Origin: Escherichia virus TH21
Sequence record: MT446395.1
Strand: one strand, 5' to 3'
Length of the DNA stretch: 52,087 nt
The position numbers were made by a program, and so were the translations under genes. Of the stretch, positions 30,988-52,087 are shown piece after piece (within the stretch, counting starts at the first letter, position 1; the number at the start of each line of letters is the position of its first letter). The notes below the pieces were generated by a model. It made no database searches and had not been told where the DNA came from. It saw only the letters and a list, made by a program, of their open reading frames with translations.

Positions 30988-31001
30988 CACTTTTTGTTAA
31001 A
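30985..31001 (+). promoter_or_regulatory. cassette palindrome TAGCACTTTTTGTTAAA
   Basis: hairpin ggggtagctgtatagttacccc; leader ATCGAAACGAACGAGGAA. Confidence 0.5.
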
Positions 31002-31057
31002 ACTCATAATCGGGGTAGCTGTATAGTTACCCCATCGAAACGAACGAGGAAGCAGAA

Positions 31058-31270
31058 ATGAAAATTGAAATTATCGACGTTAACTATGTGACAGATGACG
31101 ATGCGCTCACCCTGGAAGAATGCGGCTTTAAAGTCGGTGACGTGGTAGAGACGTCCGGTCATTACATTGATGGCGACCTTTCAATCAGGACCATCCGTGA
31201 AACCGAGTTTGTCATCGTTGGCGATGAGATCAGCATTAGCGAAAATGAATATAAGGTGATCGAAGAATGA
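31058..31270 (+). CDS. hypothetical acidic protein
   Basis: 70 aa. Confidence 0.4.
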   Translation: MKIEIIDVNYVTDDDALTLEECGFKVGDVVETSGHYIDGDLSIRTIRETEFVIVGDEISISENEYKVIEE

Positions 31271-31593
31271 TTTACATTCACACATACGGAGTCGGCAAGT
31301 TCGGCAAAGAGATTCGCCGGACCGTTCACGAAACGAAGGAATCAGCCGAATCTGCACAAAAAGTTCTCGGCGGTGAGTTCAAGGCTTACCGCGACGCAGA
31401 AGACTCGGTTGAATGCTGGCAGATTGGGCACATGCGCAATGTGCTGGAAAGCGAAGTGTCGGAACTTATCGACAACATGACGTGTCACGGCCCTGGCGGA
31501 CCATGGGAAGAACCAGGCTCACCGGAATGGGATTGCGCCAAGGTTGACACCATGAACAAGATCAGCGAAATCATTGATGAGGTTTACGAATAA
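31267..31593 (+). CDS. hypothetical protein
   Basis: 108 aa. Confidence 0.45.
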   Translation: MIYIHTYGVGKFGKEIRRTVHETKESAESAQKVLGGEFKAYRDAEDSVECWQIGHMRNVLESEVSELIDNMTCHGPGGPWEEPGSPEWDCAKVDTMNKISEIIDEVYE

Positions 31594-31832
31594 TGTTTGG
31601 ATTAACCGATCCGCAGATGAACGCAGTAAAGGCCAAGGCCAAGCAATTAAACGCAGCGTATGCCACCCTAAGCAAGAAAGATCGCAAAGATGATAAGCTG
31701 GTTGCCTCAATTATTACCAAGCACCATGAGGCCGTAGCGACCATTATATCGCGTGACAGATTTGTGTGGATTGCTGGTTATCTTAAGGGTCTGGTTGGCA
31801 AACGTGAAAACGGAGAAAGTATCTATGAGTAA
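31593..31832 (+). CDS. hypothetical protein
   Basis: 79 aa. Confidence 0.4.
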   Translation: MFGLTDPQMNAVKAKAKQLNAAYATLSKKDRKDDKLVASIITKHHEAVATIISRDRFVWIAGYLKGLVGKRENGESIYE

Positions 31833-32019
31833 GATCAAGAAAGGTGACGTGATCAAGTGCATCGGCGCGCGCGGTTATGAGTTCTTTACTGGCTGCGAGT
31901 ACACAGTGGAAAAAGTTGATTCCCAGGGATTCGTTTACGTCTACAGTGACGAGGGGAACAAGGTAGCGATCGACTACCCTGCTTGCCCGACGTATGGAAC
32001 TTTTAAAAAAGTTGATTGA
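31825..32019 (+). CDS. hypothetical protein
   Basis: 64 aa from ATG 31825 (RBS GGAGAAAG). Confidence 0.4.
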   Translation: MSKIKKGDVIKCIGARGYEFFTGCEYTVEKVDSQGFVYVYSDEGNKVAIDYPACPTYGTFKKVD

Positions 32020-32023
32020 CAGC

Positions 32024-32052
32024 CATCTCACTGACTGGTATCTTTAATCTCG
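32024..32052 (+). promoter_or_regulatory. sigma70-type promoter (TTGACA-N17-TATCTT)
   Basis: consensus -35 read directly at 32024..32029. Confidence 0.45.
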
Positions 32053-32204
32053 TAAACAGACGAGGCCACCAAGTGGCAACGAGCGGTTCGTAAGCCGCAA
32101 ATTGAAATAGCGCATCGCCAAAAGCAAAGTGTAAGTCGCAAAAAAATCGGGGCATTGTGAAAGCCCGCCGGACTCCGTAACCGGACCTAACAATGAGGTT
32201 TGAT
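32053..32204 (+). ncRNA. long structured 5' leader or candidate small RNA
   Basis: about 150 nt without ORF; stem-loops gccac-caa-gtggc, gcgg-ttcgtaag-ccgc, cggggc..gcccg. Confidence 0.25.
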
Positions 32205-32390
32205 ATGTTTGAAGTCAAGCTAACTATTTTGCTAATGGGGCGCACATGCGCATCTTGTAAGCAAAACTTTGAAGCAAAGGTTGAGGCCAGTAGCGCCGAG
32301 GAAGCCGTTTCAAAGGTGAAGGAAATGAGCGGAGTCGATACAACGACTCATAAATTTTTAGTTAATTATGTAAGGGGTATTTCATGCTGA
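32205..32390 (+). CDS. hypothetical protein
   Basis: 61 aa from ATG 32205 (GAGG 6 nt upstream). Confidence 0.4.
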   Translation: MFEVKLTILLMGRTCASCKQNFEAKVEASSAEEAVSKVKEMSGVDTTTHKFLVNYVRGISC

Positions 32391-32605
32391 CGTTTATTTA
32401 TGGTTTTATTTTAGCTTCCGTCCTGATCATTTCGCTTTCCTGCGCATGGGTTACTAAGCTAATCAAGCGCGGACAATTCGCTCAAGCGCGATATGATGAG
32501 AAGAAAAAGCAATGGCGCGTATCCGGCAAGTTCATGGTTGTTGCTAATGAGCTTTGCGATATTCGATCGGGGCGGAAGCCTGGGGCCATCAAATACGTTG
32601 ATTGA
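32384..32605 (+). CDS. small membrane protein (N-terminal TM helix)
   Basis: 73 aa. Confidence 0.4.
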   Translation: MLTFIYGFILASVLIISLSCAWVTKLIKRGQFAQARYDEKKKQWRVSGKFMVVANELCDIRSGRKPGAIKYVD

Positions 32606-32613
32606 TTCATTTA

Positions 32614-32637
32614 AGCATCCTTCGGGGTGCTTTTTTT
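32614..32637 (+). terminator. intrinsic terminator ending the accessory operon
   Basis: hairpin agcatcc-ttcg-gggtgct plus T7. Confidence 0.65.
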
Positions 32638-34815: not shown

Positions 34816-34842
34816 GGCTAGGCTAACAACCTAGCCTTTTTT
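34816..34842 (+). terminator. intrinsic terminator/attenuator after large terminase
   Basis: hairpin ggctagg..cctagcc plus T6. Confidence 0.55.
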
Positions 34843-39174: not shown

Positions 39175-39194
39175 GGGGCTTCGGCCCCTTTTTT
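39175..39194 (+). terminator. intrinsic terminator
   Basis: hairpin ggggc-ttcg-gcccc plus T6. Confidence 0.65.
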
Positions 39195-39288
39195 AATGCA
39201 TAAAAATCTGTTGCGCGCTTAACAGAAAGTGCTATTATAGAGCCGTGAACTTAATCACGGCTTTCTAACAAACAAAGGAAAACAAATT

Positions 39289-42307: not shown

Positions 42308-42979
42308 ATGGCACTTCCTAACGGTTCCCAAATCTTTATTGAGCAGACCCGATCAGCGACCGAAATCGAAGCAACCGGAGTGAGCAACGCGGAGAATCCG
42401 GTGGCGACTGTTGCGTCAACCACTGGCATTGTGAAAGGCGATTACGTCCTGGTGCTGGAAAGCGTATGGGCTGCATTTAAAAATCGCGTAATGCGAGTGA
42501 AAGAAGTAACCCTGGACGCATCAATCACGCTTGAAGGCGACAAGAACACTTCCACGGCTGACCTTAACAAGTTCCCCGCTGGCGGCGCTTCCACCTTCGT
42601 TAAGATCGAAAGCTGGATTGAGATTCCATGCGTGAGCGACATTGCAAAATCTGGCGGCGAGCAGCAGTTCTATACCAAGCAGTGTCTTTCAGATGACCGA
42701 GAGAAGCAGATCCCGACCTTTAAATCTGCGACGTCCATCGCGTATACGTTCGACTTCGACTACTCCAACCCAATCACCCAGCTTCTGATTGGTTACGACG
42801 AAGACGGCAAGACGCGCGCCATGCGAATGTTCGTACCGAAGGCAAGCTATCCGATTCGCACCTTCTCTGGTACGCCATCTTTCGATGACATCCCTAACAC
42901 GGTGATGAACGAAGATGAAACGACCATCCTGACCATCTCACTTGATGGAAAATACACGCACATGAAAGAATCTGCGTAA
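42308..42979 (+). CDS. major tail protein
   Basis: 223 aa; position before chaperone and tape-measure genes. Confidence 0.6.
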   Translation: MALPNGSQIFIEQTRSATEIEATGVSNAENPVATVASTTGIVKGDYVLVLESVWAAFKNRVMRVKEVTLDASITLEGDKNTSTADLNKFPAGGASTFVKIESWIEIPCVSDIAKSGGEQQFYTKQCLSDDREKQIPTFKSATSIAYTFDFDYSNPITQLLIGYDEDGKTRAMRMFVPKASYPIRTFSGTPSFDDIPNTVMNEDETTILTISLDGKYTHMKESA

Positions 42980-49148: not shown

Positions 49149-52087
49149 ATGATTAAAAATAGTGTAGTGACGGGCCGAAAGGGTGGCAGCAGCAAGCCGC
49201 ATACCCCACAGGAGATGGAAGATAACCTGATCTCAATCAACAAGATTAAGGTTTTGCTCGCTGTTAGTGATGGCGAGGTTGACGCGAACTTCTCATTAAA
49301 GGACTTATATCTTAATGATGTTCCTGTAATTGCACCATCCGGCGAGGTTAACTATGAAGGCGTAACGGCTGAGTTTCGCCCTGGAACGCAGACTCAGGAT
49401 TACATCAAAGGCTTCAACGACACGGCGGCTGAGTTCACTGTAGGCCGTGAATTGAAAACAACGACGCCTTACGTGATCTCGGTAACGAATAAACAGCTAT
49501 CAGCCGTCCGCGTAAAAATCCTGATGCCTCGCGGCGTTACAACGAAAGAAAACGGCGATATGGTCGGCGTGGTCGTGAAGTGGGCAGTAGATATGGCGGT
49601 AGATGGCGGGAACTACCAGGAAGTTTTATCAGACGTCATCGACGGAAAGACCATTAGCGGATATGACAAAACAAAGCGAATCGACCTCCCAGCGTTCAAT
49701 AGTCAGGTTCTATTGCGTGTTCGACGCGTTACGGCTGATTCAACTGATGCGCGCATCGTTGATACGATAAACATCCAGTCTTATGCCGAAGTGGTTGATG
49801 CTAAATTCCGTTACCCTCTGACTGGTCTTGTTTACGTCGAGTTTAACAGCGAGCTATTCCCGCAGATCCCAAGTATTAGCACGAAAAAGAAATGGAAGCT
49901 CATTAACGTTCCGAGCAACTATAATCCAGAGCTTCGCGAGTATAACGGCACATGGGATGGCAGCTTCAAAAAAGCGTGGTCAAATAATCCGGCGTGGGTG
50001 CTTTATGATTTGATTACCAATCAGCGCTACGGACTCGACCAGCGGGAATTGGGAATCGCGGTTGATAAGTGGTCACTCTATGACGCTGGTCAATACTGCG
50101 ACCAAAAAGTGCCAGACGGTCACGGAGGAACGGAGCCTCGCTATCTTTGCGATGTGGTGATTCAGTCTCAGGTTGAAGCGTACAATCTTGTGCGAGACAT
50201 TTGCTCAATATTCCGAGGAATGAGCTTCTGGAACGGTGAGAGCCTTTCAATTGTCATCGACCGACCGAGAGAGGCGTCTTATATTTTCACTAACGATAAC
50301 GTCGTTGATGGCTCATTTGCCTATACGTTCGCAAGTGAAAAAAGCATGTACACAACCTGCAACGTCACGTTCGACGACGAGCAGAACATGTACAGCCAGG
50401 ACATTGAGGGCGTGTTCGACCTTAACGCTTCATTGCGCTTCGGCCATAACCCGACAAGCATCACGGCGATCGGATGCACTCGACGCAGTGAAGCGAATCG
50501 ACGGGGCCGCTGGGTTCTCAAAACAAACCTTCGCAGCACAACGGTGAGTTTTGCAACTGGCCTTGAGGGTATGATTCCGATGATTGGCGACGTGGTAGCA
50601 ATCGCTGATAACTTCTGGTCAAGCAATCTGACGCTTTCGTTATCAGGTCGTGTGATGGAAGTGTCAGGCCTGCAAGTGTTCACTCACTTCAAGGTTGATG
50701 CGCGCGCTGGTGATTTCATTATCGTGAACAAGGCTGACGGAAATCCGGTGCGCCGGACGATTTCAAAAGTGTCTGCGGACGGGAAAACCATTGAGCTTAA
50801 CGTTGGATTCGGCTTTGATGTTCAACCCAACACAGTGTTCGCAATCGACCGCACTGATGTGGCCTTGCAGCAATACGTTGTAACCGGAATCACGAAGGGA
50901 GACGGCGACGATGAGTTCACGTACAGCATTACGGCAGTTGAATACGATCCGAACAAATACGACGAGATTGACTACGGCGTAAATATTGATGACCGACCAA
51001 CCAGTATTGTAGATCCTGACAACATGCAGCCACCAAAAAACATTGTTGTTTCATCATACTCTCGAATTGTGCAGGGGATGAGCGTTGAGACAATGGTGAT
51101 AGGGTGGGATAAAGTTCAGTACGCGAGCAAGTACGACGTGCAGTGGAGAAAGGATAACGGTAACTGGATGAACGTACCGCGTACAGCAAGCTCAGAGGTT
51201 GAGGTTGAAGGGATTTATGCGGGTAATTATCACGTACGCGTAAGGAGCATATCAAGCGGTGGAAACACGTCTCCATGGTCTGATGTTGTCAGCGTTGGGT
51301 TGACTGGTAAGATTGGGAAGCCAGATAAACCAACAGTAATAACCGCATCTAACGACCAGGTATTTGGGATACGGGTTAAATGGGGATTCCCTGAAGGTTC
51401 TGGCGACACTGCCTACACTGAGTTGCAGCAGATACCAGATAATGGCGCGGGAGGTCACACAGGAGAGGAGAACGCAAGCCTGTTAACAATGATCCCATAC
51501 CCTCAGTACGAGTACTGGCACTCGACACTACCGGCAGGATATGTGAACTGGTACAGGGCAAGATTGGTAGACAGGATTGGTAACGCCTCTGACTGGTCTG
51601 ACATTGTTCGCGGAATGGCAAGCGATGACGTTGAGTCAATAATTGGAGAAATAAAGGTTGATATCGAGAATTCCGAGGGGTTTAAGTACCTACAGCAGAA
51701 CGCCATTGAGTCAAACGGAGCTATTCAGGCGCAGGCGGAATCAATTCTTGAAAACGCACTTGCAAACGACACGGACGTGCGACGAATGACCAAGGAAAAC
51801 GGCAAGCGTAAGGCTGAATACGTTCAGGCGGTGAATCTTATTGCTGATGAAACTCAGGCGCGCGTAGAGGCTCTCACTCAGCTTAAAGCGCAGATTGATG
51901 ATGATGTCGTAGCCTCCATAACTGAAGTTCAGACGGCACTAGCCACCGAAACGGAAGCAAGGACCACGGCGGATACAGCTCTGAGTTCTCAGCTTGGAGA
52001 TACTCAGGCAGCGCTGAATGAAAAACTTGATTCCTGGGTGGATGCAGAATCAGCTGGCGCCCAGTACGGCGTTAAGTTAGGTCTAAA
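49149..52087 (+). CDS. tail tip / host-specificity protein (lambda J-like), 5' part; runs off the window end and continues at 873..1317
   Basis: open frame from ATG 49149 with no stop to 52087; in frame with ORF 85..1317 through the 872-bp repeat; full length about 1127 aa. Confidence 0.75.
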   Translation, partial: MIKNSVVTGRKGGSSKPHTPQEMEDNLISINKIKVLLAVSDGEVDANFSLKDLYLNDVPVIAPSGEVNYEGVTAEFRPGTQTQDYIKGFNDTAAEFTVGRELKTTTPYVISVTNKQLSAVRVKILMPRGVTTKENGDMVGVVVKWAVDMAVDGGNYQEVLSDVIDGKTISGYDKTKRIDLPAFNSQVLLRVRRVTADSTDARIVDTINIQSYAEVVDAKFRYPLTGLVYVEFNSELFPQIPSISTKKKWKLINVPSNYNPELREYNGTWDGSFKKAWSNNPAWVLYDLITNQRYGLDQRELGIAVDKWSLYDAGQYCDQKVPDGHGGTEPRYLCDVVIQSQVEAYNLVRDICSIFRGMSFWNGESLSIVIDRPREASYIFTNDNVVDGSFAYTFASEKSMYTTCNVTFDDEQNMYSQDIEGVFDLNASLRFGHNPTSITAIGCTRRSEANRRGRWVLKTNLRSTTVSFATGLEGMIPMIGDVVAIADNFWSSNLTLSLSGRVMEVSGLQVFTHFKVDARAGDFIIVNKADGNPVRRTISKVSADGKTIELNVGFGFDVQPNTVFAIDRTDVALQQYVVTGITKGDGDDEFTYSITAVEYDPNKYDEIDYGVNIDDRPTSIVDPDNMQPPKNIVVSSYSRIVQGMSVETMVIGWDKVQYASKYDVQWRKDNGNWMNVPRTASSEVEVEGIYAGNYHVRVRSISSGGNTSPWSDVVSVGLTGKIGKPDKPTVITASNDQVFGIRVKWGFPEGSGDTAYTELQQIPDNGAGGHTGEENASLLTMIPYPQYEYWHSTLPAGYVNWYRARLVDRIGNASDWSDIVRGMASDDVESIIGEIKVDIENSEGFKYLQQNAIESNGAIQAQAESILENALANDTDVRRMTKENGKRKAEYVQAVNLIADETQARVEALTQLKAQIDDDVVASITEVQTALATETEARTTADTALSSQLGDTQAALNEKLDSWVDAESAGAQYGVKLGL

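Follow-up and report, generated by a model that had tools for sequence, protein, structure and literature searches.

A promoter-headed, four-hairpin RNA element upstream of the terminase genes in T1-like phages

Several described RNA elements provide a frame for an untranslated leader found in Escherichia virus TH21. The tRNA cluster of phage T4 encodes ‘species 1 and 2’, stable small RNAs that share a promoter and a precursor with the phage tRNA genes. In phage lambda, the pR'-qut-tR' leader (6S RNA) is a short untranslated RNA made from a constitutive strong promoter upstream of the late genes; in the lambda nut and rrn leaders, a hairpin (boxB) is combined with a short A/U-rich single strand and boxA; and in the E. 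coli thrS operator, hairpin loops with a CGU-type anticodon-like sequence lie upstream of a ribosome-binding site. The put RNA of phage HK022, present twice per genome, is ~70 nt long and has two long stems and a base triplex (PMC9378689). The leader analyzed here lies on the + strand of sequence record MT446395.1 (52,087 nt, hereafter the window) at ~32051-32204; it is ~135-150 nt long, is untranslated and forms a four-hairpin RNA element behind a predicted promoter. The window comprises a whole genome of 51,215 bp, circularly permuted, plus an overlap in which 872 nt (1-872) recur exactly at 51216-52087, and represents a Nouzillyvirus-like member of the Drexlerviridae with 95% identity to vB_EcoM_50EP and P817. 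T1-like phages are among the commonest coliphages and laboratory contaminants and, to our knowledge, almost nothing is known about the organization of their transcription.

In nearly every Drexlerviridae lineage examined, T1 included, the unit of promoter and hairpins was found once per genome, ~0.5-0.7 kb ahead of the small terminase gene. Its parts follow in the order promoter, CGUA(A/G)ACA.A.GAG, a first stem-loop (SL1), AACG, a second (SL2), a variable middle, AAAUCG, a third (SL3) and a fourth (SL4) whose loop ends in NGUAA. Nearly all loci had a match to a regular expression for the SL4 hairpin ~500 nt ahead of the small terminase gene. Searches by blastn with the leader of the window, the T1 version and a metagenomic/Klebsiella version returned 52, 74 and 96 phage records, respectively (overlapping sets from which the overlaps were not removed), essentially all of them Drexlerviridae. 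Leader modules were also present in metagenomic viral contigs, and an exact-pattern scan of IMG/VR for the SL3-SL4 sequence returned four isolate genomes only, all already known carriers. The T1 leader, at ~7.6 kb, has the full hairpin set: SL1 is GCGC-AACUAA-GCGC and is followed by AACG, SL2 is GUGAGA-CGAU-UCUCAC, SL3 is GUUGC-AUAGUGGUUAA-GCAAC and SL4 is GCCGC-AGACCCGUAA-GCGGC.

In the window, the predicted transcript begins with a conserved single-stranded 5' segment, CGUAAACAGACGAG (32051-32064), the start being placed by its distance from the -10 hexamer. This segment, CGTA(A/G)ACA.A.GAG, is almost invariant among lineages in the alignment from covariance model R2 (see below). SL1 (GCCAC-CAA-GUGGC, 32065-32077), which is supported by covariation in the same model, is flanked by GAG and AAC and is followed by a conserved AACGA (32078-32082); C32061-G32062 is able to pair with C32080-G32081 across a purine internal loop, and these CG/CG pairs are present in minimum-energy folds. 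SL2 (GCGGUU-CGUA-AGCCGC, 32083-32098) is taken from the minimum-energy fold. Read as a 4-bp stem, it has an 8-nt loop, UUCGUAAG, that contains the heptamer UUCGUAA and is without conservation outside Nouzillyvirus. The variable middle module (32099-32139) is common to Rogunavirinae, being ~88% identical in Sf12, and is dispensable: a 42-nt stretch is cleanly missing in Nouzillyvirus PH1062 (gap placement is ambiguous by 1 nt within an A-run), and other hairpins stand in for it in Braunvirinae, T1 and others. The linker AAAAAAAUCG (32140-32149; family consensus AAAUCG in alignments A4 and A6) leads to SL3 (GGGC-AUUGUGAAA-GCCC, 32150-32166), found by covariation in model R1, and then, after a single G, to SL4 (CCGG-ACUCCGUAA-CCGG, 32168-32184), found by the regular expression and model R1, the 3' end of whose loop is the family-invariant NGUAA. 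An A/U-rich spacer, ACCUAACAAU, and the Shine-Dalgarno sequence GAGG (32195-32198) fill the remaining positions up to the ATG at 32205 (32185-32204), which is the site of a tRNA gene in relatives.

The unpaired nucleotides that are fixed across the family are the 5' CGUA(A/G)ACA.A.GAG, AACG, AAAUCG and the NGUAA on the 3' side of the SL4 loop. The motif CGTA(A/G) is enriched, with 36 occurrences in 18 lineages against 9.5 +/- 2.9 in shuffles; there are two to three copies per leader, and three in that of the window where 0.2 would be expected. A candidate pseudoknot between CCG of the SL4 loop and CGG of the linker has one compensatory case in its favor (locus L019) and phage ES against it. 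The 11-mer CATTGTGAAAG, comprising the SL3 loop and its closing pair, recurs at 42427-42437 without hairpin context (E = 0.14), probably by chance.

Several stable stem-loops had been reported in the preliminary description of this region. The minimum-energy fold of the leader does consist of four hairpins, but its energy is no different from that of shuffled sequences (-36.5 vs -36.9 +/- 3.4 kcal/mol, z = 0.11), and stability alone is therefore no evidence for them; it is covariation that supports the hairpins instead. MAFFT alignments of whole leaders or of domains left the subfamilies out of register, and RNAalifold recovered SL1 and SL2 only from such an alignment. Structure-aware alignments were therefore taken from two covariance models: R1, made up of the linker, SL3 and SL4 (22 distinct sequences), and R2, made up of the 5' segment, SL1 and AACG (21 distinct sequences). 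A search with R1 gave a single copy in the window (70 bits, E = 7e-20; the next match had E = 0.14) and, in T1, a single weak copy where it was expected.

With R1, 99.4% of the alignment cells of SL3 and SL4 were paired (100% in SL3 and 99% in SL4), and eight of the nine pairs had changed on both sides (4/4 in SL3 and 4/5 in SL4). The covariation score was 0.412, compared with 0.106 in shuffles (0/500 reached the observed value), and controls with a slid partner strand were at most 47% paired and scored at most 0.062. The stem of SL3 includes the versions GGGC/GCCC, AGGC/GCCU, GAGC/GCUC, GAGG/CCUC, GUCG/CGAC, GCUG/CAGC, GCUAU/AUAGC and GUUGC/GCAAC. SL1 behaved in the same manner in R2: 98% of its cells were paired, all five pairs had changed on both sides, and its score was 0.955 vs 0.197 in shuffles (again reached by 0/500) and at most 0.124 in slid controls. 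Both the fitting of these alignments to the model and the relatedness of the sequences inflate the shuffle statistics, which the slid controls mitigate in part, and the shuffle counts are not probabilities. A hand parse gave 11-14 distinct, fully pairing stem versions per hairpin, although the way in which the parse was made biases this count.

SL1, SL3 and SL4 are convincing as conserved helices in view of the slid controls and of how many independent stem versions there are. SL2 is supported less formally, by 11 stem versions, all pairing, in the hand parse of 13 lineages (in which the stems were chosen by hand) and by one clear compensatory variant, GCGAUU/AGUCGU in BUCT-XGG-1. The leader thus shows what generally identifies a conserved structured RNA motif, namely compensatory changes above controls across diverged sequences. 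Structural conservation in relatives was the test set beforehand for the idea that the region is a regulatory leader or an independent small RNA, and that conservation proved strong, with compensatory changes keeping SL1, SL3 and SL4 paired. The unit of promoter and hairpins was also present in every subgroup of Drexlerviridae examined, which supports a functional, structured and noncoding element on the + strand; a leader and a free RNA fit the data alike. Neither the tRNA slot described below nor the spread of the element across the family was part of the preliminary description.

The leader could instead lack any function of its own, being a passive 5' untranslated region or a decayed tRNA region whose similarity among phages stems from recent recombination and from hitch-hiking with the promoter and the tRNA slot. 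The leader is a mosaic: positions 32028-32081, its 5' part, have matches in Braunvirinae (Rtp, for example), and positions 32105-32189, its 3' part, in Rogunavirinae (Sf12 and phiEB49, for example) at 83-90% identity, the latter matches falling mostly in DNA without annotation. Loss of the middle module, turnover of tRNA genes inside one genus and an unremarkable fold energy would likewise suit a passive region. However, leader modules reach 83-90% nucleotide identity between subfamilies whose small terminase proteins are 48-64% identical, and compensatory changes hold three helices across lineages in which those proteins are ~50% identical. The unpaired nucleotides are invariant, and the element is kept in lineages without any tRNA, including T1, the window and L029-L034. 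Neutral sequence would not retain such a pattern, and a passive region is therefore improbable.

The same substitutions bear on the possibility of a protein gene on the minus strand. The leader had been described as free of open reading frames (ORFs), which is true of the + strand apart from a 25-aa ORF with a TTG start that begins in the -35 hexamer, the only + strand ORF to overlap the leader region; antisense ORFs of 80, 49 and 37 aa do run across it. The 80-aa ORF (32003-32245) is annotated as gp18 in ESCO41, and both ESCO41 and Supreme284 have a hypothetical protein annotated on the homologous stretch. That it encodes a protein is nevertheless scarcely credible: its start codon is a GTG, it overlaps the promoter as well as the end of the upstream gene and the start of the downstream gene, and in the 95%-identical 50EP, which has one A fewer in an A-run, the longest open antisense stretch is 66 aa rather than 80. 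The antisense ORFs match no PHROG family, large insertions and replacements in relatives break any common frame, and the substitutions track base-pairing (as paired double changes) rather than codon structure.

The predicted sigma70-type promoter was located by a scan at 32016-32044 on the + strand, with the -35 hexamer TTGACA at 32016-32021, a 17-nt spacer, an extended -10 TG at 32036-32037 and the -10 hexamer TATCTT at 32039-32044. The TTGACA-N17-TATCTT of the preliminary description therefore exists, but it begins 8 nt upstream of the coordinates given there (32024..32052). Nor is its -35 the sole best match of the window, as had been claimed: it scores 10/12 plus the extended -10 TG, which is the top score within 27-37 kb, and ties with TTGACA sites at 1467 and 40279 (10/12 each) across the whole window. 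Taken as a class, promoter-like matches are no commoner than chance predicts (16 vs 14.1 +/- 3.4 in shuffles), and support for this promoter comes from its conservation ahead of homologous leaders. A promoter with a 17-nt spacer heads the leader in 20/20 related loci tested and also in L050 and L037; in T1, a 17-18-nt spacer was read by eye. The promoter at 32016-32044 consequently looks real, and its activity is predicted.

The promoter spacer of many lineages has a conserved CTGA.TGG just upstream of the -10 hexamer: it reads CTGACTGG in the window (32022-32038), CTGATTGG in L029, CTGAGTGG in LF82-11 and CTGAGCGG in T1. The motif exceeds the needs of an extended -10 and may therefore be a regulator-binding site.

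That motif, together with the noncoding, single-copy nature of the leader and its proximity to the terminase genes, would also suit an element acting as DNA, such as a replication origin, a packaging (pac) site or a binding site for a regulator. Stem covariation and conserved loops, on the other hand, indicate a folded single strand, and the promoter is always at the head, with any tRNA genes following on the same strand. For a pac site the location is also wrong, as the T1 terminal repeat, where packaging starts, is annotated at 1-2800, ~5 kb from the T1 leader. A DNA-level role is accordingly very improbable.

What follows the leader differs among phages. A tRNA gene is present in ESCO41, ETEP102, BUCT-XGG-1, Sf12, phiEB49, Sd1, Phagiculus, Rtp, ECH1, ES and many viral contigs, beginning 10-11 nt after SL4 in 17 loci; three lineages have ~30 nt between the last hairpin and the tRNA. 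The genes found there are for Arg-TCT, Arg-CCT, Trp plus Arg, or Arg plus Val, with Ser-GCT in LF82-11 and HazelMika; true tRNAs of relatives score 45-65 bits with the Rfam tRNA model. The window, 50EP, P818, p111, XT34, PH1062, AAS23, T1 and six metagenomic contigs have no tRNA there (ARAGORN found 0 tRNA genes in the window and in T1), and a ribosome-binding site occupies the same ~10-nt distance after SL4. The distance from SL4 to the tRNA or Shine-Dalgarno sequence is thus constant at ~10 nt, and tRNA genes have been gained and lost within one genus. As the leader is kept whatever follows it, be it tRNA or small ORFs, the element is independent of its cargo, with a slot for tRNA genes directly behind it.

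Two further observations concern this neighborhood. A second, tRNA-like element of ~97 nt, with a 7-bp acceptor stem (CTCGGCG/CGCCGAG) and a GGTTCGATTCC T-loop, follows the tRNA-Arg in L001 (ESCO41, ~1952-2050) and L005 (ETEP102, ~1741-1840); ARAGORN made no call, the Rfam tRNA model gave 26 bits (below the 29-bit threshold), and either an insertion into a tRNA or tRNA decay may explain the element. Just upstream of the leader, near 31000-31600 of the window, HNH homing-endonuclease genes and extra small ORFs are inserted in the relatives L038, L041 and L042. Judged by these sequences, the neighborhood of the leader is a hot spot where insertions occur and tRNA genes are gained and lost.

The variety of the first cargo (several tRNAs or unrelated small ORFs) makes it unlikely that the leader is the translational operator of one gene, and a leader of 100-330 nt would have a purpose of its own because the promoter could otherwise sit directly on the cargo. 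The explanation that we favor, tentatively and at somewhat less than an even chance, is that the leader is an autonomous, protein-recognized RNA module that would be made abundantly and detached from the cargo downstream. The leader RNA itself would be the product, made in quantity from the near-consensus promoter, and a protein would recognize the nucleotides that are fixed in its loops and linkers, the repeated CGUA(A/G) motif among them. Where a tRNA follows, cleavage by RNase P would free the leader from its cargo. In the window, where the tRNA was lost or never present, RNase E might cut at the A/U-rich spacer after SL4 (a conserved AUUCA-type sequence), or the RNA might stay as the 5' untranslated region of the 61-aa gene. 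In K50_evo11 and L037, the last leader hairpin is long and is followed by a U-run, which would set a discrete 3' end.

A precedent for an autonomous module of this kind is T4 species 1 and 2, likewise a structured non-tRNA RNA that shares its promoter and precursor with tRNA genes, release by tRNA-processing enzymes being the step proposed here for the leader. The likeness is by description only; the phage family is different, and the leader RNA is on the 5' side of the tRNA and is retained by phages without one.

Several points weigh against an autonomous, detached RNA. Promoter use, the start site and all of the processing steps are inferred. In the window neither a terminator nor a tRNA lies between SL4 and the 61-aa gene, and so the RNA may never be released here. 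A scan of the window leader between 32045 and 32204 found no intrinsic terminator except a weak hairpin at 32182-32202, with a ATATGTTTGA tail, that overlaps the Shine-Dalgarno sequence and the start codon; SL4 itself is followed by ACCUAACAAU. The unremarkable fold energy and the inflated covariation statistics belong here too, and we know of no protein that binds the leader RNA. Finally, the constant synteny just upstream of the packaging and structural genes would fit a cis-regulatory role equally well. In the window, a small RNA ended by a terminator was rejected as a candidate, there being no GC-rich hairpin with a U-run before the 61-aa gene.

A cis-acting role in transcription would mean that RNA polymerase is made to read through terminators by the leader as it emerges, either unaided, in the manner of HK022 put, or together with a factor from phage or host, in the manner of nut/N, qut/Q and rrn boxA; alternatively, the leader would be a protein-controlled attenuator for the downstream module and the late genes. 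The leader is directly behind a strong promoter and heads a co-directional block of packaging and structural genes, SL3 and SL4 are adjacent hairpins with conserved loops, and an effect on the polymerase would not depend on the cargo. The strong intrinsic terminators at 34816, 40633, 43682 and 46978 each have a ribosome-binding site and ATG immediately behind them, leaving no space for a promoter; the late block of T1 has 11 annotated terminators; and in two lineages (K50_evo11 and L037) the leader ends in a terminator-like hairpin.

The transcription unit of the leader is short, however. Behind it are the 61-aa gene (32205-32390, + strand; family phrog_2919), where the ORF list agrees with the preliminary description, and a 73-aa gene (32384-32605, + strand; family DUF7299/phrog_5976), both from the ORF list and, like the upstream neighbors phrog_303 and phrog_4927, of unknown function. 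The unit then closes, ~430 nt downstream of the leader, at a strong intrinsic terminator identified by the terminator scan (32613-32632, + strand) that is fused to an extended -10 promoter serving the small terminase gene; the small and large terminase genes lie ~0.5 kb downstream of the leader. This cassette, TTTTTTTATGCCTGCAAT.TGGTA.AAT, is conserved from the window to T1, and because it precedes the small terminase gene the late genes do not depend on the leader promoter. Terminators with no promoter behind them may, moreover, be plain attenuators.

Across the late region, + strand terminators were found at 32613, 34816, 39175, 40246, 40633, 42983, 43682, 46978 and 49076, with those at 32613, 39175, 40246 and 49076 fused to promoters. 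This pattern points to graded attenuation or to a read-through mechanism that has gone unrecognized.

The leader and the putL and putR RNAs of HK022, compared by description, are alike in several ways: each is encoded by a phage immediately behind a strong sigma70 promoter, is built of neighboring stem-loops in which unpaired bases are conserved, has terminators downstream and would act independently of the cargo. The architecture of put was not found in the leader: SL3 and SL4 have 4-5-bp stems and total ~36 nt, whereas put is ~70 nt with two long stem-loops, one with a triplex (PMC9378689), and the leader has two further hairpins, is present as a single copy per genome and precedes late genes that are insulated by the terminator-promoter cassette. 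With lambda pR'-qut-tR' the leader shares a strong promoter upstream of late genes, a short untranslated RNA and, in K50_evo11 and L037, the hairpin with a U-run at the end. It differs in that no Q-like protein or Q-binding element has been identified for it, no terminator follows directly in the window and conservation is in RNA hairpins rather than DNA sites.

The resemblance to the rrn and lambda nut leaders extends to a hairpin followed by a short A/U-rich single strand in the leader of a stable-RNA operon. It goes no further: boxA (GCUCUUUAACAA or CGCUCUUA) has no + strand match within 32045-32204 at up to three mismatches, the spacer consensus is AUUCA(A/G) and the loops are not boxB-like. 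The short stems, the lack of boxA, the single copy and the insulated late genes together make cis-acting control of transcription unlikely, although it is the main rival reading. A boxB/boxA-like layout does occur in another leader, at 39232-39275, just after the cassette at 39175: a 7-bp hairpin (GCCGTGA-ACTTAA-TCACGGC) is followed by GCTTTCTAACAA, which is two mismatches from rrn boxA (GCTCTTTAACAA) and could be a chance match, there being 69 such matches in the window vs 51 expected.

The NGUAA of the SL4 loop raises the possibility that the leader mimics part of a tRNA. SL3 and SL4 would imitate the D and anticodon arms, and the SL4 loop, here with that of SL2, would show a tRNA-Thr-like NGU-A-A face that binds or decoys threonyl-tRNA synthetase (ThrRS, bound in this way by the thrS operator), a modification enzyme or a defense anticodon nuclease. 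The loop variants CGUAA, GGUAA (L019) and UGUAA (K50_evo11) correspond to the three Thr anticodons followed by A37 and A38, and the UUCGUAA of the SL2 loop in the window is identical to the anticodon loop of E. coli tRNA-Thr(CGU) (thrW). The 1-nt gap between SL3 and SL4 is that between the D and anticodon arms of tRNA, the T1-type SL3 loop, AUAGUGGU(U)AA, resembles a D loop, the leader adjoins the tRNA slot, and T1 encodes a T4-like polynucleotide kinase ~2 kb upstream.

The remainder of a tRNA is not in evidence, however: the T arm and acceptor stem are missing, ARAGORN made no call, and the Rfam tRNA model (RF00005) had no match on the leader of the window or T1 even when only ~170 nt were searched with E up to 10, a result that also removes a degenerate tRNA from consideration. 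The SL4 loops are 8-10 nt rather than 7, and that of SL2, at 8 nt, lacks conservation beyond Nouzillyvirus. The resemblance was, furthermore, chosen after the fact among many possible tRNA loops, and the thrS operator loop is itself UUCGUGU.

With the thrS operator the leader has in common hairpin loops bearing a CGU-type anticodon-like sequence upstream of a ribosome-binding site, two of them in the window (SL2 and SL4). The differences are the size of those loops, a cargo that is often tRNA rather than mRNA and the lack of sequence similarity beyond the loop, and a link to ThrRS is only postulated. Mimicry of a tRNA is quite improbable; if true, it would make the leader an RNA-based device for counter-defense or host manipulation across the T1 family, next to a slot for replacement tRNAs.

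Further identities were sought and not found. At permissive thresholds, no family in Rfam 15 overlapped the leader in the window, T1 or seven related loci (other than the genuine tRNAs of those loci), and the best match within the leader was cow-rumen-1, with 10.3 bits against a threshold of 53.4. A search by blastn of 5,426 E. coli genomes gave no match, and the leader was therefore not borrowed from a host leader or small RNA. The annotation as tRNA-Ser under a blast match belongs to a real tRNA-Ser that abuts the leader. A leader-peptide attenuator was suggested by a mini-ORF in the window, GAGG-N7-GUG GCA ACG AGC GGU UCG UAA (32073-32093), and was rejected because neither frame nor start codon is conserved: L026 has an ATG in another frame, and L029 and T1 have no start codon there. 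An RfaH ops-like sequence, GGTAGCGT, is absent from the window and confined to the middle module of some Braunvirinae. The literature searched contained no description of the element and no transcriptome of the T1 family.

The Kyungwonvirus leader is longer than the others, at ~330 nt, and carries a long insert. L049 (Cronobacter phage CS01, 481-674) and L035 gave sub-threshold matches to tmRNA models (tmRNA_permuted, 27.4 bits, and alpha_tmRNA, 21.9 bits), probably by chance.

What is new, on the sequences compared here, is a structured RNA motif, common to the family and joined to a tRNA slot, that is absent from Rfam 15 and from the literature searched. It is a ready candidate for a new Rfam family, and it marks the one place where T1-like phages gain and lose tRNA genes. 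Nothing yet points to an unusual mechanism; the leader nevertheless gives a testable handle on the transcription and RNA biology of T1-like phages. Knowing its binding partner would tell a small RNA, a decoy and a polymerase modifier apart, and each of these would be a new RNA player in a classic phage family and would help to explain where its members place their tRNA genes.

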